Source: Oscillospiraceae bacterium | Lineage (GTDB): Bacteria > Bacillota > Clostridia > Oscillospirales > Acutalibacteraceae | NCBI GenBank assembly: GCA_015066515.1 | Contig: SVOH01000003.1 | Span: 8,535-72,534 of the forward strand | Direction: 5' to 3' | DNA: 64,000 nt | Shown: positions 4,723-58,824 of the stretch, piece after piece | Position numbering within the stretch: position 1 is the stretch's first letter | Layout: every line of letters starts with the position of its first letter | Position numbers and translations under genes: made by a program | Notes under the pieces: model-generated | The model's database searches: none | Seen by the model: only the letters and a program-made list of their open reading frames with translations | What the model was told of the DNA's origin: nothing

Positions 4723-7320
4723 TGGTTTTCGAATGAGAAAACCGATTATTGATAAAACGGTTGTGCCAAGTGCGTAAAGCAAAACTGTTGATGCCTGTGG
4801 CATTGACATAAAGCCTGAAAAAGAGGCATACACAAAATACATAATACCGAATATCGCAAATAATATATACATAATTGTAAGCAATTTATTTGAACGTATA
4901 ATCATTGAGGCGCAATTAATGATTTTTACCAAATTTAATTGTGAGCCTCGGTATGCCGCAGGTGCGGAACAAATTGATACATCTGGTGTTATGTTTTTAA
5001 GCATATAGACACCGGCATTTGACATTACTTTTACCGAACCCTCATATAAGTCAAAATAATCACATATCATTTCCTCGGTTATATTGGGGTCGCAGTTTTC
5101 GACTAAAAGTGTAAGCCCTAAATTTGTAATTTTACGTAGCTCTTTTGCAATTTCAGTTCTCGCCTCGTATTGTATTATAATAAGTGCACAAGCGGTGTCG
5201 GTGGTTGCTACATATACAGGGAAATATCCGTTACGTAAAATCTTTTTATCTATTTCAAGACTGGGTATTTGTATGCCATGGGCCTGCATAAACGAACGGT
5301 TACCTATAAATAGCAATTCGTTATTTACCCATCCGGAAATACCAAGATTTTTTTCGTATTTTACAGTATCGGAATCGGGAATGGTGTATGAGCTGTTAGT
5401 GCCTGCAATCTGGTTAAAGATTGCCTCAAGCGGACTTTTAACAGCTGCGGTAAGCGATGCCGCACGCAAAATGGTGTCATCAATATTATTGTTGGATAAC
5501 ACCTTCATACTGTACATTTTTATAGAGCCCGTTGGGAAAATGTCGTTTATATGAACAACGGCGGCATTTGTAAGGTCTAATCTTTCGGCACCGTACATGC
5601 CCGCAATCATTGAACCTTTTGAATTAAGCTTTTTAGAAGCGACTGATAAAGGTAAGCTGTCAATAAAGAATAATGTTGGTATAGCTGTAACACACGAAAC
5701 AACAGCGGCACTATAAAACGCATCAAATATACTTTGATAATAAAAATATGCTATAATTCCACACAAGACAGAGAATACCAAACTAAAATAAAACATAAAA
5801 GGACCTTTGCCCGAAAGCTTTGGTGCAAATTCGGTATGCTTAATATAGTCTGAAAGTAGTACTGTTTTGCGGGGTGCCGCAATAAGAACATCACCGTCTA
5901 TGGTGTTTTTAGCCATTGCAAAAGTGGTTGCAGGGTCGTCTATAAGTGTTATGGCTTTTTTATCGCTGTTATTTAGAATTTGTTTAAGGTTGCCAATTTT
6001 ATAAGAAATTTCTTTAAAATTGCATATTGCTCTCATCAGCAATATTATTGCACAAAGTAAAATCATATAATACGCATTGGCATCGGTAAGTGCCGCACAA
6101 ACTGTAAGCGATAGTGAAAAAATCGCGCCAAGAGCGGCAATAGCGTCAAAACCACATTGTTTTGAGACGAGGTTTTTAAGGTCAAAAAACATATTAATGT
6201 TTGCTACGACCGAAAGCAGTAAAAATGCTCCGCAGGTAAACATTGCGTTTTTAGGTTTTGCTATAATAAAGTCAAAAATAGGGGGGAGTAAAAACACTAG
6301 CAACGCAATAACACTTAAAGCAGAAACAAAAACGCTTATAAATCCGGAACGCTTTTTTATTGCAAGCTCTCGCATAATTTTTTTACCGCTCGCAATATCA
6401 GTTATTTCATTTTTTGGTGTAAATTTTTCAAACTCGGATTGTTCAAAGCTTTGTAATGGACTTTGCGAAGAAATATCTTCAACATAATCTTCGCCCAAGT
6501 CGATGTGCCTCGTAGAGCTGCTTATAGTTATATGGTCGGTATTACCTTTGGTATCTTTCACAGGAGTAAAACGAATAGTTGCGGTATTAGACATCTCACC
6601 GGGGGTAGTTATACCAACTTCTTTGTTATCGATATCTGAAATATTGGGCACACTTGCGTCTGGAATTTCTTCTAGCTTTTTGTTGTCTGTAAAAAGATTA
6701 TCAAACATCTCTTGTGTTTCGCGCTTTTCTGATTCGATTACCATTTTTTCAAACGCTACAGTAGGTTTGATTGCAGAATTCGTTTTTTCGGAAAAGGATG
6801 GTTTGGTTGGTTCTTCGCTATTGGTGTCGGTATTGTTAATATCAATGCCGTATTTTTCCGAAAGGCTTTTCATAGCACTTTCGCCATCACTCATAAGAAT
6901 TTCTGCAACAGATTCAAGGTGATAAAGCGGTTCATTATTTTCGGAAGCATCTTTACCATGCTCATCTATTGTATATCGTTTTACTTTTTCAACAAGTGTC
7001 TTATGTGAATTATCCTCTTGGTTGTCAATGTGCTGGGTAGTTTTATCCAAATTATTTGAGTTTGGTTTAGAAGCAGGTTCTTTTGATTCTTCGCTTTGGG
7101 GTACGGTTGCCGATACGTTCATACGTTTTTTTAGCGAGTCAAGAGCTCCCGTTTGTGTTACATTAGATTCATCATCGCCAAATATCCAAAGGTTAGAGAC
7201 CTCGTCGGGAGTCATAGCGTGAGGAGCTAAATTTTGATCACCTGATATTTTTATAGGTTCATCGTCGGTATTTATAATAAATCCGTTGTTTTCATCTTTT
7301 CGTTTTGAGAAAAATCCCAT
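4720..7320 (-). CDS. polytopic membrane protein homologous to P1B-type ATPases but with degenerate catalytic motifs; ~330-aa polar/acidic N-terminal region
   Basis: Blocks are collinear with a P-type ATPase, but DKTGT is replaced by NDIFPTGS, SEHP by VKSP and TGD by NCD. There are multiple TM segments. Confidence 0.6.
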   Translation of the reverse strand: MGFFSKRKDENNGFIINTDDEPIKISGDQNLAPHAMTPDEVSNLWIFGDDESNVTQTGALDSLKKRMNVSATVPQSEESKEPASKPNSNNLDKTTQHIDNQEDNSHKTLVEKVKRYTIDEHGKDASENNEPLYHLESVAEILMSDGESAMKSLSEKYGIDINNTDTNSEEPTKPSFSEKTNSAIKPTVAFEKMVIESEKRETQEMFDNLFTDNKKLEEIPDASVPNISDIDNKEVGITTPGEMSNTATIRFTPVKDTKGNTDHITISSSTRHIDLGEDYVEDISSQSPLQSFEQSEFEKFTPKNEITDIASGKKIMRELAIKKRSGFISVFVSALSVIALLVFLLPPIFDFIIAKPKNAMFTCGAFLLLSVVANINMFFDLKNLVSKQCGFDAIAALGAIFSLSLTVCAALTDANAYYMILLCAIILLMRAICNFKEISYKIGNLKQILNNSDKKAITLIDDPATTFAMAKNTIDGDVLIAAPRKTVLLSDYIKHTEFAPKLSGKGPFMFYFSLVFSVLCGIIAYFYYQSIFDAFYSAAVVSCVTAIPTLFFIDSLPLSVASKKLNSKGSMIAGMYGAERLDLTNAAVVHINDIFPTGSIKMYSMKVLSNNNIDDTILRAASLTAAVKSPLEAIFNQIAGTNSSYTIPDSDTVKYEKNLGISGWVNNELLFIGNRSFMQAHGIQIPSLEIDKKILRNGYFPVYVATTDTACALIIIQYEARTEIAKELRKITNLGLTLLVENCDPNITEEMICDYFDLYEGSVKVMSNAGVYMLKNITPDVSICSAPAAYRGSQLNLVKIINCASMIIRSNKLLTIMYILFAIFGIMYFVYASFSGFMSMPQASTVLLYALGTTVLSIIGFLIRKP

Positions 7321-7339
7321 AATTATTTTCCCACCATTT

Positions 7340-8110
7340 TTATTTTAAATTTCTCTTTCTTACTACTTCGTACATCAATACACCGGCGGCAACAGATGCG
7401 TTGAGTGAATTAATTTTTCCGCACATAGGAAGACTAATAATGCCGTCACATTTTTTGGCAACAAGTGTTCCAATACCTTTGCCTTCATTTCCAATGACGA
7501 TAGCGCAGGGAATATTATAGTCTGTTTGTGTATAGGGTGAGCCGTCCATATCTGCACCAAAAACCCAAATACCTTTTTCTTTGAGGTCATCTATAGTATT
7601 TGCAATGTTTGTAACGCGTGCCACCTTCATATATGCTAAAGCACCGGCAGATGTTTTTTCAACCGTGGCGTTAAGTGATGCTGAACGACGCTTTGGAATG
7701 ATTATGCCGTGAACACCGCAAGCCTCGGCTGTACGTATGATAGCGCCAAGGTTGTGAGGGTCCTCGATTTCATCACAAATTACAATAAAAGGATTTTCGT
7801 TTCGTTCTTGAGCTGTTTTTAAAATATCTTCTACTGTAGAATATTCCTGACTGGCTATCATTACGGCAACGCCCTGATGGTTACCGCCGCCGCAATAGTA
7901 ATCAAGTTTTTGAGGGCTTATTTCTTTTATTAAAATACCACGCTGATTGCATTTTGCGCGAATTGCTGTAACCGAGCCGCCCGTTACACCGTGTGCTATT
8001 AAAAGACGGTCTATTTCACGACCTGAGCGTAATGCTTCCATAACAGGATTTCTGCCATATATGATGTTACCTTGCTTTGAGTCAAGATTTTCCCTATTGC
8101 CAAATTCCAT
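7340..8110 (-). CDS. rlmB: 23S rRNA (guanosine-2'-O)-methyltransferase, SpoU/TrmH family (RlmB-like)
   Basis: N-terminal IYGRNPVMEAL substrate-binding region and a SpoU methylase core (NLGAIIRTAEACG, IVIGNEGKG). ATG at 8110 is preceded by AGGTGA. Confidence 0.85.
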   Translation of the reverse strand: MEFGNRENLDSKQGNIIYGRNPVMEALRSGREIDRLLIAHGVTGGSVTAIRAKCNQRGILIKEISPQKLDYYCGGGNHQGVAVMIASQEYSTVEDILKTAQERNENPFIVICDEIEDPHNLGAIIRTAEACGVHGIIIPKRRSASLNATVEKTSAGALAYMKVARVTNIANTIDDLKEKGIWVFGADMDGSPYTQTDYNIPCAIVIGNEGKGIGTLVAKKCDGIISLPMCGKINSLNASVAAGVLMYEVVRKRNLK

Positions 8111-24838: not shown

Positions 24839-26209
24839 ATGAGCGAAAACAACCTTATTTATGATATTGATGGTGCAAGATTGCCGTATTCAATAAGTGC
24901 TGAGCAGGCGGTTTTGGGCGCAATGATTATTGACCCAAACTGTATAGACGAGGTAGCGGTTTGTGTTAAGGCTGATTATTTTTACCTTAAGCAGCACAAA
25001 CAGATTTTTGAAGCCATTTCTTCTATGTATCAGTTCAGTCAGGCAATTGATTTTATATCGCTTCTTGCACGACTTAAAAAAGACGGCGTTTATGATGAGG
25101 CATCGGGTAAAGAGTATTTGACACAGCTTGTTCAAAAGGTTCCTTCATCGGCAAATGTAATGACCTATGTTGGTATTGTGCGCGAGCATTATTATCAGCG
25201 TGCATTGGCGGGTGCCGCTCAGGATATACTTAAGGATATAAGTGAAAACTCTATGGACTCCGGCAAAATGCTGGATGCTGCCGAGCAACGTATTTATGAA
25301 ATTCGTGATGGTAGAGAAATTGGTGGTCTTACACATATTAAGGATGTAATTATAACGGAAACCTACGACCGCCTTACTAAAATAAATGATCCTGAAACAC
25401 GAAATGATTACATAGGTATACCTTCGGGAATAGGTGCGCTAGATAAAATGATTACAGGCCTTAACAAGTCTGACCTTATCATTTTGGGTGCGCGTCCCGG
25501 TATGGGTAAAACCTCTTTTGCACTCAATATTGCACGAAATGTTGCTGTTACAGCCGGTAAAACGGTATGTTTTTTCTCGCTTGAAATGTCGCGTGACCAG
25601 TTAGCACAGCGTATGCTTTCCAGCGAAGCTGCAATAAGCAGTGAAAAGTTGCGTACAGGCGAGTTGCAGCCGGAAGAGTGGACAAGACTTATGCAGGCGG
25701 GTGAGTGCCTTTCAAAAGCTGAGCTATATTTCGACGAAAGTTCAAATATAACCGTTCCCGAAATGATGGCAAAGTTGCGTCGTATGAAAAAATGCGACCT
25801 TGTTGTTATTGACTACCTTGGTCTTATGCATTCGGCAAGAAAGACCGACAACCGAGTTCAAGAGGTTTCGGAAATTACACGCAGTCTTAAAATTATGGCA
25901 AAAGAGCTTAAGGTTCCGGTAATTGCGTGTGCACAGTTGTCGCGTGGTACTGAAACAAAAGGTAAGTCGCACAAGCCGGCTCTTGCTGATTTGCGTGATT
26001 CGGGTTCTATTGAGCAGGACGCAGATATAGTATTGTTCCTTTATCGTGAAGCCTACTATGACGGCGAAAAAAATACCGATGAGGATAAAAGTGACACCAC
26101 AAAATCAGAGTGTATTGTTGCTAAAAACCGTCACGGTAGTGTAGGTTCTGTACCGCTTCACTGGGATGGTGACCATACAAGATTTACATCGGTGGATGTG
26201 TTTAGATAA
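24839..26209 (+). CDS. dnaB: replicative DNA helicase
   Basis: Walker A motif GARPGMGKTSFAL and the C-terminal motif NRHGSVG. Position after rplI is conserved. Confidence 0.95.
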   Translation: MSENNLIYDIDGARLPYSISAEQAVLGAMIIDPNCIDEVAVCVKADYFYLKQHKQIFEAISSMYQFSQAIDFISLLARLKKDGVYDEASGKEYLTQLVQKVPSSANVMTYVGIVREHYYQRALAGAAQDILKDISENSMDSGKMLDAAEQRIYEIRDGREIGGLTHIKDVIITETYDRLTKINDPETRNDYIGIPSGIGALDKMITGLNKSDLIILGARPGMGKTSFALNIARNVAVTAGKTVCFFSLEMSRDQLAQRMLSSEAAISSEKLRTGELQPEEWTRLMQAGECLSKAELYFDESSNITVPEMMAKLRRMKKCDLVVIDYLGLMHSARKTDNRVQEVSEITRSLKIMAKELKVPVIACAQLSRGTETKGKSHKPALADLRDSGSIEQDADIVLFLYREAYYDGEKNTDEDKSDTTKSECIVAKNRHGSVGSVPLHWDGDHTRFTSVDVFR

Positions 26210-27510
26210 TGCTTAAAAAAGTAGTTGAGGCAGTAAAGGGCTTTGATATGCCTACAAATGATAAGCATATCACGGTAGCTCTTTCGGGCGGTGCTGATTC
26301 GATGGCGTTGCTTGAAGTACTGCTTACATTAAAGGAAGAACTTAACATAAAAAAAATAAGTGCTGCGCACTTTAATCATCAAATTCGTGGAGCCGAAGCA
26401 CTTCGCGATCAAAACTTTGTGGAAGATTATTGCAAGCAAAGGAATGTAGATTGCTTTGTTGGTAGTGCCGATGTTTTAGGGTATGCAAAGCAAAACGGTC
26501 TTAGTACAGAGCTTGCCGCAAGAAAATTGCGTTACGCTTTTTTTGACTCTCTTGATACCGACCTTATTGCCACGGCACATACAGCAAGCGACAATATAGA
26601 AACAGTGCTTTTTAATCTTACGCGTGGCACGGCACTATCGGGGCTTTGCGGTATTCCCCCTGTGCGTGATAGATATATACGACCAATTATTCTTTGTACG
26701 CGTGAGGATATTGAGAACTATTGCAAGCAAAAATCGATAGCTTTTGTAACCGATAGCACAAATTTATGCGATGACTACACCCGCAACAAAATACGTCACA
26801 ATGTAGTACCAATACTAAAAGATGTGAATTCTTCGGCAGAAAATGCTGTGTCGCGAATGGGCGCATCACTGCGTGAGGATGAGAATTTTATTGGTGGTAT
26901 TGCAAGGCAAAAATATGGTGAGTTGCTTCGTGAAAACGGACTTGCGATTGATGGCTTTGAGGCGCTTCATTCTGCTGTTGCTAAAAGAATTATTGCATAC
27001 TTTTGTAATGACTCAGGGCTAGAGATTGACAGTTTTCATATAAATGCGGTATATGATATTTGTTTGCGTGGAGGCAAAATGAGCTTACCGCTTAATAAAT
27101 CGGCGGTTATTTGTGACGGCGTTTTAATGATTGTTGACAACAATGTCCAACCTAAAAATATTGAGTTTTTAGTTGATGTAATTAAAACTGATAACGATTT
27201 ATTTAAAAAAGATGAAAAAGTTCATAATTTGTTTTTAAAAAATATATTGGACTATGATAAAATAGTAGGCGAGCTGGTTTTAAGAAAAAGACAATCGGGC
27301 GACAGTATAAGACTTAAAAATAAAAATGGTACCAAAACGCTAAAAAAACTTTTTTGCGAATACAAAATACCACACAATGAGCGCGAGAATTTACCCGTTC
27401 TTTGTGATGAAAGTGGAATTGTATGGGTGTATAAAATTGGCGTAGCCGAGCGTTGTGCCGCAGATGAAAATAGTACGAGCATATATAAAATAAATGTCAA
27501 GAAACTTTAA
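26209..27510 (+). CDS. tilS: tRNA(Ile)-lysidine synthase
   Basis: PP-loop motif ALSGGADSMAL. TAATG overlap with dnaB. Followed by hpt-ftsH as in many Firmicutes. Confidence 0.9.
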   Translation: MLKKVVEAVKGFDMPTNDKHITVALSGGADSMALLEVLLTLKEELNIKKISAAHFNHQIRGAEALRDQNFVEDYCKQRNVDCFVGSADVLGYAKQNGLSTELAARKLRYAFFDSLDTDLIATAHTASDNIETVLFNLTRGTALSGLCGIPPVRDRYIRPIILCTREDIENYCKQKSIAFVTDSTNLCDDYTRNKIRHNVVPILKDVNSSAENAVSRMGASLREDENFIGGIARQKYGELLRENGLAIDGFEALHSAVAKRIIAYFCNDSGLEIDSFHINAVYDICLRGGKMSLPLNKSAVICDGVLMIVDNNVQPKNIEFLVDVIKTDNDLFKKDEKVHNLFLKNILDYDKIVGELVLRKRQSGDSIRLKNKNGTKTLKKLFCEYKIPHNERENLPVLCDESGIVWVYKIGVAERCAADENSTSIYKINVKKL

Positions 27511-27522
27511 GGGGATAAAGAT

Positions 27523-28065
27523 ATGGAGAAAGATGTAAAAAGCATTTTGATATCTGAAGAAGAAATTAAACAAATCTGTAAAAGACTTGGCGAGCAGATA
27601 ACACGCGATTACGAGGGTAAAAATTTGTTGGTTGTAAGCGTGTTAAAAGGTAGCATAATGTTTATGGCTGACTTGCTTCGCGAAATTAAGTGCCTTTGCC
27701 AGATAGATTTCTTATCGGTATCATCGTATAGCGGTACAAAAACCACCGGCGTTGTAAAATTTAAAAAAGACCTTGATATAGATCCCGACGGTATGGACAT
27801 ACTTATAGTTGAGGATATTTTGGATTCGGGTGTTACATTGTCGTATCTTAGCGGTGTGCTTATGGGTCGAAATGCAAATAGCATTAAAATTTGTACCCTG
27901 CTTGACAAACCTGCAAACCGCAGAGCTGATATCAAGGCTGATTATGTTGGTAAGGTTATCCCCGATGAGTTCGTTATAGGCTATGGCCTTGATTACGATG
28001 AAAAATATAGAAATTTACCATACATAGGTATACTTGCTCCTTCGGTTTACGGTGGGGAAGAATAA
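27523..28065 (+). CDS. hpt: hypoxanthine phosphoribosyltransferase
   Basis: PRPP-binding motif LIVEDILDSGVTL; 180 aa. Confidence 0.9.
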   Translation: MEKDVKSILISEEEIKQICKRLGEQITRDYEGKNLLVVSVLKGSIMFMADLLREIKCLCQIDFLSVSSYSGTKTTGVVKFKKDLDIDPDGMDILIVEDILDSGVTLSYLSGVLMGRNANSIKICTLLDKPANRRADIKADYVGKVIPDEFVIGYGLDYDEKYRNLPYIGILAPSVYGGEE

Positions 28066-28094
28066 CGGCAATATTGAAAGGTGAGTAACTTATT

Positions 28095-29939
28095 TTGAAA
28101 AAGAATTTTAAAAGTATATTATTGATTCTAATAATACCAGTGTTGTTGTTTGGTTCATTTTTTGTAGCGTCAAGGGTTGCAAACACAACAGAAAAGGTAA
28201 AGTATTATGAGATTGTAGAACTTATTGAAAACAACAAGGTGTCAGAGTTTAAGTTGAATCTGTATAATGGAGATTTAACCTACAAACTTCGTGAAGACGG
28301 TAAGTCCTATCGTTATAGAGTAGCAGATGCATCGCTTTTCTATTATGATATTGATGAGGCTATTGACACCATAAACCGCGAAAATGCGGGCACTGATAAG
28401 ACAATTAAATACGACTACATCAAGGGTGGACAAAGTTCTTGGCTTGTGGCAATGATACCTAACATATTACTTATTGGTGTTATGATTCTTTTTGCCGTAA
28501 TGTTTATGCGAAAGATGAATTCAACAATGGGCGCCGATAAGACTATGGGCTTTGGTAAGGCCAAGGTTCGTAAGGATGATGGCCGTAAAAAGACCACCTT
28601 TGCAGATGTTGCAGGCGCCGATGAAGAAAAACAGGAAATGGCCGAGATAGTAGACTTTTTAAAGGACCCCAAAAAGTTCAACGAGCTTGGTGCCCGTATT
28701 CCAAAAGGTGTATTGCTTGTTGGCCCTCCAGGTACAGGTAAAACCTTGCTCGCTCGTGCAGTTGCAGGTGAGGCGGGTGTACCGTTTTTCTCGATTTCGG
28801 GCTCTGACTTTGTAGAAATGTATGTAGGTGTGGGTGCGTCACGTGTGCGTGACCTTTTTGGTGAAGCCAAGAAAAACGCTCCTGCAATTATATTTATAGA
28901 CGAAATTGATGCTGTTGGTCGTCAGCGTGGTGCAGGTCTTGGCGGCGGTCACGATGAAAGAGAGCAAACCCTTAACCAAATGCTAGTTGAAATGGACGGC
29001 TTCGGCACTAACGAGGGCGTAATAGTTATGGCGGCAACCAACCGCCCCGATATACTTGATAAAGCGCTTTTGCGTCCCGGCCGTTTCGACCGTCAGATTA
29101 CCGTTAACTATCCTGATGTTAAGGGTAGAGAAGAGATACTAAAGGTTCATTCTCGCGGTAAGCCTTTAGGCCCTGATGTAAATCTTGCTACAATTGCAAA
29201 ATCAACCTCGGGCTTTACGGGTGCTGACCTTGAAAACCTGCTTAACGAAGCAGCACTTCTTGCGGTTCGTCACAATAAAAAGGCTATTACTCAAGAAGAA
29301 ATTGAGGAAGCTACCATTAAGGTTGTAATGGGTACCGAAAAGAAATCTCACAAGGTGAGCGAAAAAGACAAAATGGTAACCTCTTATCACGAGGCAGGTC
29401 ATGCTATTGTATCGTATTTCTTGCCAACGCAAGACCCTGTGCATCAAATCTCGATTATTCCACGCGGTATGGCGGCGGGTTATACAATGTATTTGCCTAC
29501 CGAAGAAAAGGGTCACACCAGTAAAAATCAGATTTTAGAGCAGATTTGTTCACTGCTTGGTGGTCGTGCCGCAGAGCAGCTAACCCAAGATGACGTTTGC
29601 ACCGGCGCTTCAAACGATATTCAGCGCGCTACAGAGCTTGCACGCAAAATGGTTACACGATTTGGTATGAGCGACAAGTTGGGACTTGTAGTTTACGGTG
29701 ACGATAATAACGAGGTATTCTTAGGTCGTGATTTCTCGTCAACACCTAACTACTCTGAAAAGACAGCCGCTACCATTGACGACGAAATTGAAGCAGTTGT
29801 TATGAAGCAGTATGAAAAAGCGCTTGAGCTTCTTAAAGGCGCTATGCCAAAGCTTCACGAGGTTGCAAAGGTACTGTTTGAAAACGAAAAGATTTCGGGC
29901 GACGAATTCCGCACTATAATGGAAGCAAAAGCAGAATAA
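28095..29939 (+). CDS. ftsH: ATP-dependent zinc metalloprotease FtsH
   Basis: Walker A motif [11 protein letters not shown], second region of homology and zinc motif HEAGHA. TTG start with AAAGGTGAG RBS. Confidence 0.95.
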
Positions 29940-29947
29940 AAAGACAC

Positions 29948-29982
29948 AAGGCTTGAGGTTAAACCTCAAGCCTTAATTTTTT
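29948..29982 (+). terminator. intrinsic terminator after ftsH
   Basis: Stem AAGGCTTGAGGTT-AA-ACCTCAAGCCTT followed by a T-run. Confidence 0.85.
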
Positions 29983-29983
29983 A

Positions 29984-30012
29984 TTGATATTTAATTTTAT
30001 TAGTGTTATAAT
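29984..30012 (+). promoter_or_regulatory. strong extended -10 sigma-A promoter
   Basis: TTGATA (29984-29989), 17-nt spacer, TGtTATAAT (30004-30012). Predicted TSS is near 30019. Confidence 0.65.
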
Positions 30013-30018
30013 AAACCC

Positions 30019-30191
30019 ATACCACACAAACTTAATATTGGGAACATATGCGGAGTCGTATTTTTATTTTGGTAAAAATGCAGGCTTCTTATTTGGCGTA
30101 CTCTTGTGTATGTTCCAAAGTTTGTGTGGTAGCAAATCGAGGTCGCATTTTTCGGTGTGTGTGACTTCGGTTGCACACACTTTTTAATTTT
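30019..30191 (+). ncRNA. candidate cis-regulatory leader (attenuator/riboswitch-like) or sRNA of unrecognised class
   Basis: 14-bp perfect helix 30020-30033/30118-31; 8-bp helix 30041-48/30109-16; AU hairpin 30058-66/30073-81; ends in a terminator. The unit lies between a consensus promoter and the SD of the next gene. Confidence 0.5.
30155..30191 (+). terminator. intrinsic terminator inside the leader, 16 nt before the ATG at 30207
   Basis: 11-bp stem GGTGTGTGTGAC / GTTGCACACAC with a UUCG loop, then TTTTTAATTTT. Confidence 0.8.
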
Positions 30192-30206
30192 AAGGGGGAT
30201 ATTAAA

Positions 30207-30950
30207 ATGAACATCACTTTTAATCCAAGAGGGAAAAAACAATGGACGATTACCGATACCGAAATTATCTGTGGCAAAAAGGAAATACTACTTCCAACTA
30301 TTTGTAGAATTATTCATACCCTACCTACAAAATTTCCCGGTGCACAAGGTTCAATATTTATAAATTATAAAAAAGATAGTGAAGAGTATTATTTAAATAA
30401 TTCAATAGAACTAAAATATGACAAAAAAGATATTGAAAACGCAAAAATAGGAGCAGAATATTTATTAAAACTTTTTGATAACGACAATTATAATATAATT
30501 GTCGACGAAAAAAAGGGTAAAACTTATACAACTAAAAAACGAGAACCTGTAAAAGAACCAATACAATTTTATAAAAAATGTAACACTTGTGGTCATATTT
30601 ACTGTTATACCCAAGCCGATTTAAACAAAAACAAGCAACTTTCAAGACAAGCTGCGGCAAACAGTTTTGCTTCTGCATTTGGTCCTGCTATTATGAGTGC
30701 AACATATAATCAGACTGCTGCTGACAACAAAAGCAGAATTATTGATTATGATAAATGTCCAAATTGCAATTCATTAGATGTTGTTTCCATAACCGAAGAA
30801 GAAGTTAGAAACATTTCTAAAAATCAAGATACCCAACAATCAAATATATCACAAGCAGATGAATTAAAGAAATTCAAAGATTTACTTGATAGCGGTGTTA
30901 TTACCCAAGAAGAATTTGATGCAAAGAAAAAGCAGTTATTAGGTTTATAA
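30207..30950 (+). CDS. hypothetical protein with a split zinc ribbon and a C-terminal SHOCT domain
   Basis: ATG at 30207 with AAGGGGG RBS. CNTCGH...CPNCNS are two CxxC pairs about 55 aa apart. The C-terminus LKKFKDLLDSGVITQEEFDAKKKQLLGL matches the SHOCT pattern. Confidence 0.7.
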   Translation: MNITFNPRGKKQWTITDTEIICGKKEILLPTICRIIHTLPTKFPGAQGSIFINYKKDSEEYYLNNSIELKYDKKDIENAKIGAEYLLKLFDNDNYNIIVDEKKGKTYTTKKREPVKEPIQFYKKCNTCGHIYCYTQADLNKNKQLSRQAAANSFASAFGPAIMSATYNQTAADNKSRIIDYDKCPNCNSLDVVSITEEEVRNISKNQDTQQSNISQADELKKFKDLLDSGVITQEEFDAKKKQLLGL

Positions 30951-30963
30951 TACATAAAAATTT

Positions 30964-30992
30964 GAGAGTGGTATATACCACTCTCTTTTCTT
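30964..30992 (+). terminator. intrinsic terminator
   Basis: Perfect 22-bp palindrome GAGAGTGGTATATACCACTCTC followed by a T-run. Confidence 0.8.
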
Positions 30993-31034: not shown

Positions 31035-31541
31035 ATGAATTTACCCAAACGCAAGCCGACACGGCTCGTCGATTACGATTACAGTAGCGAGGGTGCATAT
31101 TTTATAACAATATGTACGCATAATCGCAAAAATTTATTTTCAAATATCGTAGGGGCGATTCACGAATCGCCCGAAAACAAATTGAATTCAAATGGCAAAA
31201 TCGTAGATTATTATATAAACAAATTAAATGATAGATTTGAATTAAAAGTTGACAAATATATTATAATGCCAAATCATATTCATTTGATTGTCGTCATCGA
31301 GAAAAACGAACGGTCGATTCGTGAATCGACCCTACAAAAACGCGCGTTAATTTCAAAAGCAATGGGATATTTAAAGATGAATGTATCACGTGATATTCAT
31401 AAAAACGGATATAGCAAAAACATTTGGCAACGCTCATTTCACGACCATATTATTCGTGACGAAAAGGATTATTTAAAAATTTGGAATTATATTGACACAA
31501 ATCCTCAAAAATGGAGTGACGATTGTTTTTACACAGAATAA
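31035..31541 (+). CDS. REP-associated tyrosine transposase (RAYT) / IS200-like Y1 HUH transposase family protein
   Basis: HUH motif IMPNHIHLIVVI. C-terminal block WQRSFHDHIIRDEKDYLKIWNYIDTNPQKW is typical of COG1943 proteins. 168 aa. Confidence 0.8.
   Translation: MNLPKRKPTRLVDYDYSSEGAYFITICTHNRKNLFSNIVGAIHESPENKLNSNGKIVDYYINKLNDRFELKVDKYIIMPNHIHLIVVIEKNERSIRESTLQKRALISKAMGYLKMNVSRDIHKNGYSKNIWQRSFHDHIIRDEKDYLKIWNYIDTNPQKWSDDCFYTE
31149..31173. repeat. 25-bp hairpin element, copy A, inside the RAYT CDS (encodes VGAIHESP)
   Basis: GTAGGGGCGATTCACGAATCGCCCG; a 9-bp stem. Confidence 0.8.
31311..31335. repeat. 25-bp hairpin element, copy B, inverted relative to copy A (encodes RSIRESTL)
   Basis: The reverse complement GTAGGGTCGATTCACGAATCGACCG matches copy A at 23 of 25 positions. 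The two differences (G>T and C>A) are the two halves of one base pair. Confidence 0.8.
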
Positions 31542-58623: not shown

Positions 58624-58698
58624 TGGCAGGGGTAGAAGGACTCGAACCCTCACAAACGGTTTTGGAGACCGGTGTGCTACCATTGACACCATACCCCT
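58624..58698 (-). tRNA. tRNA-Trp (CCA)
   Basis: The reverse complement AGGGGTATGG...GGTCTCCAAAACC...GGGTTCGAGTCC...CCCCTGCCA forms a cloverleaf with anticodon loop CTCCAAA and an encoded CCA. Confidence 0.95.
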
Positions 58699-58747
58699 AA
58701 ATAAAAATATGCCTCTTATAAAGAAGCTATATTATATAAAAAATAAA

Positions 58748-58824
58748 TGGTGGACCAACAGGGACTCGAACCCCGGACCAACCGGTTATGAGCCGGTTGC
58801 TCTAACCAACTGAGCTATTGGTCC
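58748..58824 (-). tRNA. tRNA-Ile2 (CAU, substrate for lysidine modification); elongator tRNA-Met is the alternative
   Basis: GGACCAATAGCTCAGTTGGTTAGAGCAACCGGCTCATAACCGGTTGGTCCGGGGTTCGAGTCCCTGTTGGTCCACCA. C4-G69 and C5-G68 in the acceptor stem plus a TTGGTC variable loop match tRNA-Ile2. Confidence 0.85.

Follow-up and report, generated by a model that had tools for sequence, protein, structure and literature searches.

What is encoded in the segment that separates a promoter-like site from a zinc-ribbon gene in a 64,000-nucleotide stretch of DNA (hereafter the window) from an Oscillospiraceae bacterium? The Oscillospirales (Acutalibacteraceae, Oscillospiraceae, Ruminococcaceae) are abundant in the gut and rumen and mostly uncultured, and their gene regulation is nearly unknown. 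A preliminary description of the window had listed a promoter, a hairpin, a terminator and an SD/ATG in this segment, all of which we recovered at the places it gave, and had considered a regulatory leader and a stand-alone sRNA as equally live readings. On the evidence of sequence comparison, the segment is predicted to specify a structured leader RNA of ~170 nt, which is conserved, matches no described family and appears to be laid out like a riboswitch-type terminate/read-through switch. As the leader of the downstream mRNA, it probably belongs to an undescribed family of cis-acting conditional transcription terminators of the Oscillospirales, and is a candidate orphan type of riboswitch or attenuator. 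No further copy of the element was found within the 64-kb window. Its features are as follows:

29984..30012, + strand: sigma-70-type promoter, with the -35 TTGATA at 29984-29989, a 17-nt spacer and the extended -10 TGtTATAAT at 30004-30012
30020..30033, + strand: P1 5' strand (UACCACACAAACUU), at the predicted extreme 5' end of the transcript; one arm of a 14-bp inverted repeat (100%)
30034..30040, + strand: J1/2, the 5'-side asymmetric bulge AAUAUUG with a conserved AUA
30041..30057, + strand: P2 5' strand, variable in sequence with conserved pairing
30058..30067, + strand: segment A (GUAUUUUUAU), 5' arm of the local hairpin P3 in the MFE fold and a direct repeat with segment D
30068..30073, + strand: P3 loop and junction UUGGUA, including a highly conserved GGU
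30074..30088, + strand: segment B and its extension (AAAAAUGC-A-GGCUUC), with A (in P3) or D (in the pseudoknot) as partner
30098..30116, + strand: P2 3' strand, from the MFE fold and the family duplex test
30118..30131, + strand: P1 3' strand (AAGUUUGUGUGGUA), pairing with 30020-30033
30132..30148, + strand: antiterminator 5' strand, made up of a conserved GCAA junction, a GAGG(U) segment and the GCAU of D
30139..30152, + strand: segment D and its extension (GAGGUC-GCAUUUUU), the pseudoknot 3' strand, overlapping the antiterminator 5' strand
30154..30191, + strand: intrinsic terminator, with a 12-bp stem (30154-30165 / 30170-30181), a UUCG loop and a U-tract (30182-30191)
30159..30174, + strand: antiterminator 3' strand, running from the distal portion of the terminator 5' arm across the UUCG loop into the proximal portion of its 3' arm
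30192..30950, + strand: SD AAGGGGGA (30192-30199) and an ORF from ATG 30207, stop included

The promoter, described earlier as a near-consensus extended -10 type, scores 11/12 plus the TG, the best among 9 promoter-like sites in the region. It predicts a transcription start at ~30018-30020, in keeping with the earlier placement (~30019) at the 5' arm of the outer helix, P1 beginning at 30020. The same arrangement recurs across 97 family loci: TTGnnn-17-TAnnnT is present in 93, of which 84 carry the TG, and 4-6 nt separate the end of the -10 from the first P1 pair in most.

The fold of this leader is not due to chance. The MFE of 30017-30135 is -45.1 kcal/mol, against -23.3 +/- 3.2 for shuffled sequences (z = -6.8; 0/200 shuffles as good), and the whole leader has an MFE z of -7.5 against shuffles. 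The 14-bp outer helix of the preliminary description is indeed a perfect inverted repeat (30020-30033 / 30118-30131), and this helix, P1, is 13-15 bp long across the family, with z = -28 in a comparison of cognate and non-cognate duplexes. It is joined to P2 by J1/2, likely a hinge, whose 5' and 3' sides have median lengths of 5 nt and 1 nt, respectively, and which contains AUA in 69/99 members. The inner helix had been noted too, though at 8 bp its length was underestimated: the inverted repeat spans 30038-30048 / 30109-30119, and the MFE fold stretches P2 to ~17 bp (30041-30057 / 30098-30116). Across the family P2 has a median length of 17 bp (IQR 15-19), and its cognate duplexes give -18.4 against -6.8 kcal/mol for non-cognate ones (z = -40). 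The AU hairpin, P3, likewise appears in the MFE fold (30058-30067 / 30072-30081), and is followed by ~16 unpaired nt rather than the ~25 given before. A leader-peptide attenuator was also considered and rejected: the lone ORF across the leader (29984-30187) begins upstream of the predicted transcription start, and P2 varies by compensatory base changes and not codon-wise, which indicates that it is not coding.

Homologs of the leader were recovered from Oscillospirales MAGs, where 19 copies precede SHOCT genes (the protein-anchored genome loci), and from metagenomes, with at least 120 copies (pattern-anchored), for which nhmmer confirmed 120/120; a CM search gave 102 matches. They come from gut and rumen Clostridia, where many unrelated small genes lie downstream. 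The neighbours of the element include no recurrent linked trans-factor gene or recombinase, and those upstream are unrelated housekeeping genes. Specificity to phages or mobile elements was rejected on the grounds of these upstream neighbours and of a count of only 2 matches among 2.9 million viral contigs. The earlier claim of a conserved structured RNA with its own promoter is borne out by these homologous leaders and their many compensatory changes, the check which that description had proposed; on an alignment of the family (A2), such changes affect 14/14 pairs of P1, with 94.5% of its cells paired, and 8/12 pairs of the terminator. For the structure as a whole, 94.9% of cells in A2 are paired as against 81.6% in shuffles and at most 57% when the alignment is slid; as the family sequences are phylogenetically related, shuffle statistics of this kind overstate significance.

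Such inverted repeats could in principle belong to a DNA-level element, such as an invertible promoter segment, an integron attC-like site or a MITE, and only resemble RNA helices. The perfect 14-bp inverted repeat around ~85 bp would suit such an element, as would its scattered chromosomal sites beside heterogeneous small accessory genes. However, on the + strand G.U pairs far outnumber A.C pairs in the family, by 71 vs 16 in P1 and 214 vs 1 in the terminator; because of this excess the element is taken to act as RNA on that strand, and a DNA-level inverted repeat was rejected. The promoter and terminator are moreover strand-specific and conserved in position, the pseudoknot and antiterminator described below covary, the window holds a single copy and no recombinase is linked to it. 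A DNA element is, in our judgment, barely conceivable.

Beyond the 5' hairpin, the comparison brought out a helix absent from the preliminary description, namely a long-range pseudoknot of 14 bp between 30074-30088 and 30139-30152, which is supported by covariation. The U-rich segment A is nearly repeated by segment D, and both are complementary to B. A:B is 88% paired, with AU/GC/GU swaps at columns 71:218 and a cognate-test z of -5.9. B:D is 96.8% paired, columns 218:314 of A2 holding CG 33, UA 30, UG 29 and other 2; the pattern used for metagenome retrieval fixes the cores of B and D and thereby inflates their conservation, while leaving the Y:R covariation and the other helices unforced. 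In the protein-anchored subset, which was chosen independently of the DNA pattern, 94.7% of B:D is paired. A:B and B:D use identical B columns, and each covaries at the Y/R position. The full pseudoknot duplex has a median of 15 bp and z = -8.8, to which the GCUC:GGAG extension contributes only jointly with the B:D core, its own covariation not being significant (z = -0.7). The linkers measure 4 and 6 nt, and the lengths of helices and linkers are narrowly spread across the family; as far as sterics can be judged from lengths, this would be compatible with a pseudoknot folding back alongside P1-P2.

The intrinsic terminator, UUCG-capped and followed by a U-run as previously described, has a stem of 12 bp (11 bp in that account), whose 12 pairs are 94-100% paired on A2. 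Its competitor is a hairpin that had gone unnoticed, the covariation-supported antiterminator 30132-30148 / 30159-30174, which is present in the unconstrained MFE fold of the full leader while the terminator is absent from it. In the cognate test across the family the antiterminator reaches z = -13.5. On the CM alignment A7 it is 96.1% paired, against at most 48.6% when slid, with compensatory changes at 8/16 pairs and 92 doubly changed cells vs 30 in shuffles, the CM alignments being fitted to the structures tested. When RNAalifold was applied to the linker-terminator region in a plain MAFFT alignment, indels limited the recovery to 5 inner antiterminator pairs, and a small CM (R2) was needed. 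The two hairpins are closely matched in mean energy (-18.0 kcal/mol for the antiterminator vs -17.7 for the terminator), the antiterminator being at least as stable in 61/101 members. Furthermore, the antiterminator (5' strand 30132-30148) and the pseudoknot (3' strand 30139-30152) have linker bases in common, so that the expression platform shares a strand with the sensor. Two further readings, the linker GGAG as an SD mimic and the frequent AUG in 'GGAGNNAUGCG' as the start of a short ORF, were rejected, since the spacing is insufficient and not all members have the AUG; pairing to B and to the top of the terminator accounts for the bases concerned.

The attenuation-type design suggested earlier thus stands, terminator and antiterminator being mutually exclusive and both covarying, whereas the particular switch that had been envisaged fares poorly. 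In that mechanism the P1 arms (CACACA / UGUGUG) would compete with the arms of the terminator, and opening of P1 would bring about antitermination. The complementarity is present in the window, and the 3' strand of P1 weakly prefers its cognate 3' arm of the terminator (z = -4.5). Family-wide, however, the complementarity is only weakly borne out: the 5' strand of P1 with the terminator 5' arm gives z = -2.8, as compared to -1.5 and -1.7 for negative controls and -13.5 for the linker antiterminator. The GCCAAACAA subgroup lacks it, the P1 3'-strand signal derives in part from the AGCAA junction that belongs to the real antiterminator, and opening the stack of 14 bp and 17 bp would cost ~45 kcal/mol. 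We consider this mechanism highly improbable. The competitor of the terminator is, according to the predicted pairings, the linker 30132-30148, for which the 30074-30088 strand of the pseudoknot would in turn compete. Comparative analysis establishes six predicted helices, together with their mutual exclusivity, their covariation and the near-equal computed stability of antiterminator and terminator.

These features also bear on the idea of a stand-alone sRNA of ~165 nt, which would end at the terminator and act in trans, the downstream gene being transcribed by incidental read-through. Such an RNA would be served by the strong promoter of its own, by the efficient-looking terminator and by a long hairpin stable enough to stabilise it, and the lack of relationship among the downstream genes points the same way. 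Yet in place of the constitutive terminator and separately promoted downstream gene of a trans-acting sRNA there is a conserved competing antiterminator, which covaries, is as stable as the terminator and would have no purpose under constitutive termination. The element has a constant orientation, an ORF always coming next downstream; in the window the U-tract passes straight into the SD (30192-30199), whose position, like that of the ATG (30207), is as noted before, and in most loci U-tract and SD lie ~3-30 nt apart, a second estimate being only ~3-15 nt. Between terminator and SD the window contains no promoter and has no room for one. In addition, P2 is free to vary, and no obvious conserved single-stranded seed was found outside the intramolecular alternatives. 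The sRNA reading, once thought equally live, is decidedly improbable. The general attributes of a riboswitch, by comparison, are present: a covarying structured 5'-UTR domain (P1, P2, P3 and the pseudoknot, with a promoter upstream and an ORF downstream), and an exclusive terminator/antiterminator pair that overlaps the sensor.

What, then, does the leader control? In the window the encoded protein is 247 aa long; it carries two CxxC motifs of zinc-ribbon-like type and, at its C-terminus, a SHOCT domain (E = 1.5e-10). The preliminary description had asked whether homologs always precede SHOCT-type genes, and in the RNA-anchored metagenome sample they do not: a C-terminal motif search recovered SHOCT in 0/69, inspection revealed one or two SHOCT-like tails, and the genes are heterogeneous. 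SHOCT does occur in 16/75 of all the downstream proteins, nearly all from loci retrieved via the SHOCT protein, and a SHOCT-specific leader was rejected, the link being a sampling artefact. The 75 proteins match 37 different Pfam families, many having no match at all, and besides the ascertainment-biased SHOCT the commonest families are zinc ribbons, with 3-5 members each. The gene types include lipoproteins, zinc-ribbon membrane proteins, small peptides and surface proteins; among the 69 ORFs of the RNA-anchored set, hydrophobic/TM segments occur in 32, a lipobox in 10 and at least two CxxC motifs in 13. No coherent ligand-related gene set or common pathway was found among the 75 proteins. 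A riboswitch ligand can thus not be traced in the usual way, through a pathway common to the regulated genes, and on this count a protein effector is just as possible.

Such an effector might be an Oscillospirales RNA-binding protein, or another trans-acting factor, which biases A:B vs B:D within the same helix relay, with the ACACAA/UUGUGU of P1, the AUA bulge, GGU and AGCAA as recognition parts. The sequence conservation of P1, unusual for the closing helix of a riboswitch, points in this direction, heterogeneous target genes are familiar from protein-controlled regulons, and no coherent metabolic theme points to a ligand. Against this, no candidate protein is linked to the element, the upstream neighbours being unrelated housekeeping genes, and the large size of the RNA, its intricate fold and its pseudoknot are what is typically seen in an aptamer that binds a ligand. 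A protein-dependent attenuator of this kind, which amounts to a sub-case of the preferred reading with another effector, is unlikely, though it deserves to be taken seriously. The absence of a gene theme would also suit a constitutive 5' module without sensing, in which a decay-protecting hairpin is combined with a terminator acting as a fixed partial 'leak valve', or a switch responding only to temperature, Mg2+ or elongation rate. In almost every member only a few nt separate the predicted 5' end from the start of the hairpin, as would be the case for a 5' stabiliser, and temperature and ions would affect the A-U-rich helices that compete. However, three layers of exclusive, covarying helices along with conserved unpaired nucleotides exceed what a stabiliser or a leaky terminator needs, and we hold such a module to be improbable.

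Returning to the conditional terminator, we propose that it may operate as follows: 1) A strong sigma-A promoter would start the transcript, whose first nucleotides would form the base of the long 5' hairpin. 2) This hairpin, with P1 (~14 bp), the 5-nt AUA bulge and P2 (~17 bp), would present the A-rich segment B at its tip. 3) B could pair either with the U-rich A upstream, giving P3, or with the near-identical D in the linker, giving the 14-bp pseudoknot. 4) The linker (GCAA...GGAG...GCR) could alternatively pair with the terminator top to form the antiterminator hairpin. 5) With B held by A, the linker would be free, the antiterminator would form and RNA polymerase would read into the gene. 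6) Were B and its extension to take the linker, the antiterminator would be blocked, and the terminator would stop transcription at ~30185-30191. 7) A cellular signal (small molecule, ion or protein) would tip A:B against B:D; in the polarity that we prefer it would stabilise the fold-back pseudoknot and turn the gene OFF. We offer, as a tentative proposal that could well prove wrong, that this is a new riboswitch class, which senses a global intracellular signal (e.g. a nucleotide second messenger or a metal ion) by means of the fold-back pseudoknot and decoy strand, controls, in gut and rumen Oscillospirales, a scattered regulon of small genes for membrane proteins, zinc-ribbon proteins, lipoproteins and surface proteins, and has even been borrowed by the phages of these bacteria for moron genes.

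The recurrence of one leader before unrelated, mostly uncharacterised small genes would delineate a regulon defined by sequence, and offers a route to the stimulus of these genes. If a ligand exists, the class would be new and of unusual build, with its 5'-terminal bulged hairpin, 14-bp A/U pseudoknot and internal decoy strand arranged in a three-layer relay. The identity of the ligand would provide physiological context for dozens of orphan protein families, including the SHOCT and zinc-ribbon membrane proteins, and the compact cassette of promoter, leader and terminator could serve as a ready regulatory part for engineering gut Clostridia.

With respect to known RNAs, Rfam 15, whose 4227 families cover every named motif of the riboswitch, T-box, leader and gut-metagenome kinds, gave no match at the gathering threshold to the leader in the window or to those of 18 homologous loci, in agreement with the earlier impression of an unrecognised fold; a permissive Rfam scan yielded only sub-threshold chance matches, the best at 28.8 bits against a gathering score of 100. 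In the literature, no paper was found that joins SHOCT with a riboswitch or RNA motif. A search of 200 of the 408 supplement files of the catalogue of Fremin & Bhatt 2021 (PMC8040213) did not turn up the element, nor did keywords for taxon and gene type reveal any sign of it in the main texts of Narunsky 2024 and Brewer 2021. The leader resembles the orphan RNAs of gut metagenomes, such as Gut-1 and Clostridiales-1, in habitat and in the logic of discovery, but matches neither of these two, both being in Rfam. A Gut-1 match was observed elsewhere in locus L125.

Among regulatory leaders, the T-box leaders of Firmicutes similarly begin with a long 5' hairpin, interrupted by an internal bulge, and continue into an antiterminator and a terminator that exclude each other. 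The present leader, however, has neither a T-box sequence nor a UGGN bulge, and forms a predicted linker pseudoknot in place of a contact with the tRNA acceptor end; a T-box assignment was rejected, there being no RF00230 match and no aminoacyl-tRNA synthetase or amino-acid genes downstream. As in the classical attenuators (trp, pyr), with their 1:2 / 2:3 / 3:4 logic, a chain of overlapping helices would decide the final terminator, but the leader has no leader peptide ORF and no site for a known binding protein such as TRAP or PyrR. A functional analogy is provided by the c-di-GMP-I/II riboswitch regulons of Clostridia, where multiple copies with terminator-based control precede unrelated genes, among them many for surface, membrane, secreted and hypothetical small proteins; the leader nevertheless has no GEMM-I/GEMM-II match, and differs in its conserved nucleotides and fold. 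That it senses a second messenger is, on this analogy, speculation.

SAM-I/S-box and preQ1-I are transcriptional OFF riboswitches with an anti-antiterminator relay, preQ1-I being closed by a pseudoknot. The leader is like them a 5'-UTR element with its own promoter and with an SD and ORF directly after it, in which the 3'-most strand of the predicted sensor is shared with the antiterminator and an antiterminator strand is shared with an intrinsic terminator of nearly equal energy. It differs from them in lacking an Rfam 15 match, in preceding genes that give no hint of a ligand, in the long bulged hairpin, which an A/U-rich pseudoknot of 14 bp would anchor to the 3' tail of the same RNA, and in the additional internal decoy strand A, which duplicates the linker strand D.

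The leader RNA upstream of the SHOCT-domain gene contains, at sequence level, the promoter, outer helix, small A/U hairpin, terminator and ribosome-binding site attributed to it in the preliminary description; its inner helix is also present, and in the minimum-free-energy (MFE) fold extends further than the 8 bp noted there.

Features of the leader and its surroundings
29948-29974, both strands: bidirectional ftsH terminator, a perfect palindrome scored on both strands, 5' of the leader
ending at 30012, +: promoter TTGATA-17-TGtTATAAT, 11/12 plus the extended TG, top of nine regional sites
30020-30033 / 30118-30131, +: outer helix P1, a perfect 14-bp inverted repeat
30041-30057 / 30098-30116, +: inner helix P2, about 17 bp
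30058-30067 / 30072-30081, +: small hairpin P3, with 5' arm A and 3' arm B
30154-30181, +: UUCG-capped terminator with a 12-bp stem, followed by a T-run
30207, +: ATG 3' of the terminator, preceded by AAGGGGGA; start of a 247-aa ORF ending in the SHOCT domain
30964-30985, both strands: SHOCT-gene terminator, a perfect palindrome scored on both strands

The hairpin is far more stable than its dinucleotide shuffles (-45.1 versus -23.3 +/- 3.2 kcal/mol, z = -6.8), as is the fold of the whole leader (z = -7.5). One palindromic terminator ends ftsH and the other the SHOCT gene, so that the two bound a self-contained, monocistronic cassette of leader plus gene. The genes 5' of the leader (24839-29939) are, in order, a dnaB-like helicase, tilS, hpt and ftsH. 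Directly 3' of the SHOCT gene lies an ORF (31035-31541, +) with a weak Pfam match to the IS200-like Y1 transposases (PF01797, E = 5e-6), possibly encoding a REP-associated tyrosine transposase-like protein; no connection between this ORF and the leader was found.

Homologous leaders, whose existence across Clostridia and metagenomes the preliminary description had left to database searches, were recovered from both sources. Protein-anchored loci, which encode relatives of the downstream protein and were limited to one genome per species, were searched with the intergenic DNA of the window. Clear non-coding homologs emerged at about 20 loci, belonging to Acutalibacteraceae, Oscillospiraceae, Ruminococcus, Faecousia and unclassified Clostridia MAGs; all carry a TTGnnn-17-TGnTAnnAT promoter directly 5'. 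In the best homolog, from an Acutalibacteraceae MAG (L001; L-numbers denote homologous loci), a terminator hairpin near-identical to that of the window lies immediately 5' of the leader, and conserved synteny of the upstream region is only suggested. A DNA pattern combining two conserved blocks (GGTAAAAAYGC and, after a gap of 50-80 nt, GYRTTTTTCGGTGYG) matched at least 120 metagenome contigs, the RNA-anchored set, with a profile search confirming 120/120 of the matches listed; among 2.9 million viral contigs it occurred in only 2. The promoter is at the conserved position in 93/97 loci, with a 17-nt spacer in 86/93 and the TG in 84/93, and since in most of these 4-6 nt separate the end of its -10 element from the first P1 pair, the transcript starts with P1.

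We aligned 102 copies with a covariance model, R1, giving alignment A2, and the compensatory changes sought in the outer helix and terminator are present in it. P1 is 94.5% paired, with compensatory changes at 14/14 pairs (for example UACCACACAA/UUGUGUGGUA, UGCGACACAA/UUGUGUCGCA and UGCCAAACAA/UUGUUUGGCG), and the terminator is 94-100% paired, with 8/12 pairs compensatory. Pairing over the entire structure reaches 94.9%, compared with 81.6% after column shuffling and no more than 57% with partners slid, figures to be read in the light of the bias of such alignments towards the structures modelled and of the kinship among the sequences, which renders shuffle statistics optimistic. The sequence of P2 is not conserved while its pairing is always kept, with a duplex energy of -18.4 kcal/mol for cognate and -6.8 kcal/mol for non-cognate arms (z = -40). 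G.U greatly outnumbers A.C in both P1 (71 versus 16) and the terminator (214 versus 1), which points to selection on the plus-strand RNA and rules out a DNA palindrome as the selected unit.

The unconstrained MFE structure of the full leader lacks the terminator, and instead pairs 30132-30148 (GCAA-UCGAGGUCGCAU) with 30159-30174 (GUGUGACUUCGGUUGC), the latter strand spanning the distal 5' arm, UUCG loop and proximal 3' arm of the terminator. We take this hairpin, which is absent from the preliminary description, to be a predicted antiterminator. A dedicated covariance model, R2, was built to align this region; in the resulting alignment 96.1% of the hairpin is paired, compared with 92.0% after shuffling and no more than 48.6% with partners slid, 8/16 pairs are compensatory, and doubly changed cells number 92 versus 30 in shuffles. 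The hairpin is conserved and its strands covary, as in AAAUGGAG/CUCCAUUU, AAACGGGG/UUCCGUUU, AAGUGAGG/UCUCACUU and AAUCGAGG/ACUUCGGUU, and cognate strands pair better than non-cognate ones (-18.3 versus -14.2 kcal/mol, z = -13.5). Over 101 members the mean energies of antiterminator and terminator are -18.0 and -17.7 kcal/mol, the former being at least as stable in 61/101.

A further set of exclusive pairings centers on the A-rich segment B (AAAAAUGC, 30074-30081), which is complementary both to A and to D (GCAUUUUU, 30145-30152), a linker segment that nearly duplicates A (direct repeat D2, inverted repeat I11). Neither helix figured among the pairings named for the switch in the preliminary description, and B:D is newly recognised here; as the P1-P2 hairpin encloses B but not D, B:D constitutes a pseudoknot. 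In A2, A:B is 88% paired (AU 42, GC 26, GU 10 at the B column shared with B:D), and B:D is 96.8% paired, its sole variable position being CG in 33, UA in 30, UG in 29 and other in 2, the metagenome copies having been collected with the B and D cores fixed. The protein-anchored subset, selected without the DNA pattern, shows 94.7% pairing and double changes in two loci (ACA/UGU in L070, UAC/GUA in L075). The cognate versus non-cognate test gave z = -5.9 for A:B and B:D alike. B:D is extended by GGCUUC (30083-30088) pairing with GAGGUC (30139-30144) into a duplex of 14 bp in the window and a median of 15 bp in the family (cognate -16.0 versus non-cognate -13.7 kcal/mol, z = -8.8).

These helices would form a chain of overlapping strands, in which B takes A or D, D with its GGAG-type extension takes B or the terminator top, and the terminator top takes the linker or the terminator base. 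P3 with the antiterminator would thus be the ON state, allowing read-through, and the pseudoknot with the terminator the OFF state. The nested ON state is the window MFE (-66 kcal/mol); the OFF state exchanges P3 and the antiterminator (-20.9 kcal/mol) for the duplex (about -14.7) and the terminator (-16.5), pseudoknot loop penalty not included. Allowing for this penalty, of unfixed size, the two states would be similarly stable, as a switch requires. Lengths are tightly held while sequences drift: P1 has a median of 14 bp (IQR 13-15), P2 of 17 bp (IQR 15-19) and the 5' bulge of 5 nt, with linkers of 4 nt from P1 to the pseudoknot and 6 nt from the pseudoknot to P2. These ten nucleotides are too short for a coaxial 31-bp stack, so that the pseudoknot can coexist with P1/P2 only if the hairpin folds back; judging from the lengths, it would do so at the conserved AUA bulge, bringing its tip beside its base. 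Our preferred reading is an OFF switch, in which an effector would stabilise the fold-back pseudoknot and thereby cause termination; the opposite polarity may apply if the effector instead locks P3 or masks the GCUC toehold.

The association with SHOCT genes did not hold beyond the loci retrieved with the SHOCT protein, among which alone it dominates. First downstream ORFs of the RNA-anchored set are heterogeneous, many of them lacking a Pfam match.

Products of downstream genes in the RNA-anchored set
Lipoproteins; membrane proteins with C-terminal zinc ribbons
BspA-type LRR, SLH and Big_2 surface proteins; DUF1413
Small Cys-rich peptides (..CLGNGE.GFECCCDECD..)
XRE and AbrB/MazE-type small regulators; ECF sigma factor
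FecCD permease; AMP-binding enzyme

The genes 5' of leader copies are likewise unrelated housekeeping genes (for example recA, ffh, rsgA, ppa and tex). That unrelated genes repeatedly follow a near-consensus promoter and a common leader is suggestive of an RNA-defined regulon. In one subfamily (L190, L184, L105, L081, L117) the U-tract is separated from the start codons of different ORFs by a shared, conserved stretch of about 25 nt, CACCGAGAAAUAAAUUUUGGAGGG.

About 20% of members are longer (210-230 nt) owing to a domain inserted within P2, comprising a conserved hairpin (GGGG..UAUACCCUUU) and an extra helix; they include L074 (32-264), L036, L006, L024, L009, L136 and L191, and most have a P1 of the GCCAAACRAAC type. 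The regulated gene of this subgroup encodes a 54-84-aa Cys-rich peptide family without any Pfam match (M.KNIQKK.IDITG.EL.PG.P..CLGNGE.GFECCCDECDYYLLCFPE; L191 531-734, L141, L088, L089, L120, L101, L168, L136). In L140 the whole promoter-plus-leader unit is tandemly duplicated (5418-5584 and 5655-5816), the hairpin of the first copy being degenerate; a small XRE-type HTH ORF follows, with a lysine riboswitch 250 nt beyond (6081-6243). L125 has two full copies 1.5 kb apart (737-901 and 2260-2424), preceding different genes and flanking an Rfam Gut-1 RNA (1905-1980). In L010 (2616-2746) the linker and terminator (GAGGUUACGCAUUUUUCGGUGUGUG...) are all that is retained, an unrelated AT-rich hairpin taking the place of the P1-P2-P3 sensor; this copy is possibly decayed or rewired. 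L202, one of the two viral matches, is genuinely phage DNA, carrying capsid, scaffold, terminase and HNH genes; there (6817-7556) the leader precedes a membrane protein of 188 aa whose zinc ribbon is C-terminal, its gene being inserted, in moron-like fashion, on the opposite strand. L201 carries a copy near a contig end, and an unannotated 6.5-kb 'Bacteriophage sp.' record from human faeces (MT837627.1, 2226-2346, -) is 72.7% identical to window 30061-30185 and probably represents a further copy.

Consistent with the novelty proposed earlier, no Rfam 15 family reached threshold in the window leader or 18 homologous loci, and a permissive scan of the leader gave nothing beyond sub-threshold noise; across the 64-kb window the only Rfam matches are two adjoining tRNA genes (58627-58824, -). 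Literature text searches returned no description of the leader; it might be listed without a name in a large metagenomic catalogue. No T-box features, leader peptide or recognisable binding-protein motif were found in it. Like riboswitches in general, it combines a covarying aptamer-like domain with an expression platform overlapping that domain; its downstream genes do not form a coherent set, and by analogy its putative regulon may resemble those of second-messenger riboswitches in Clostridia. Its anti-antiterminator, antiterminator and terminator would follow the same logic as S-box-type OFF riboswitches and classical attenuators, and given this shared relay logic and its position outside every described family, we class the leader as a putative orphan riboswitch or attenuator.
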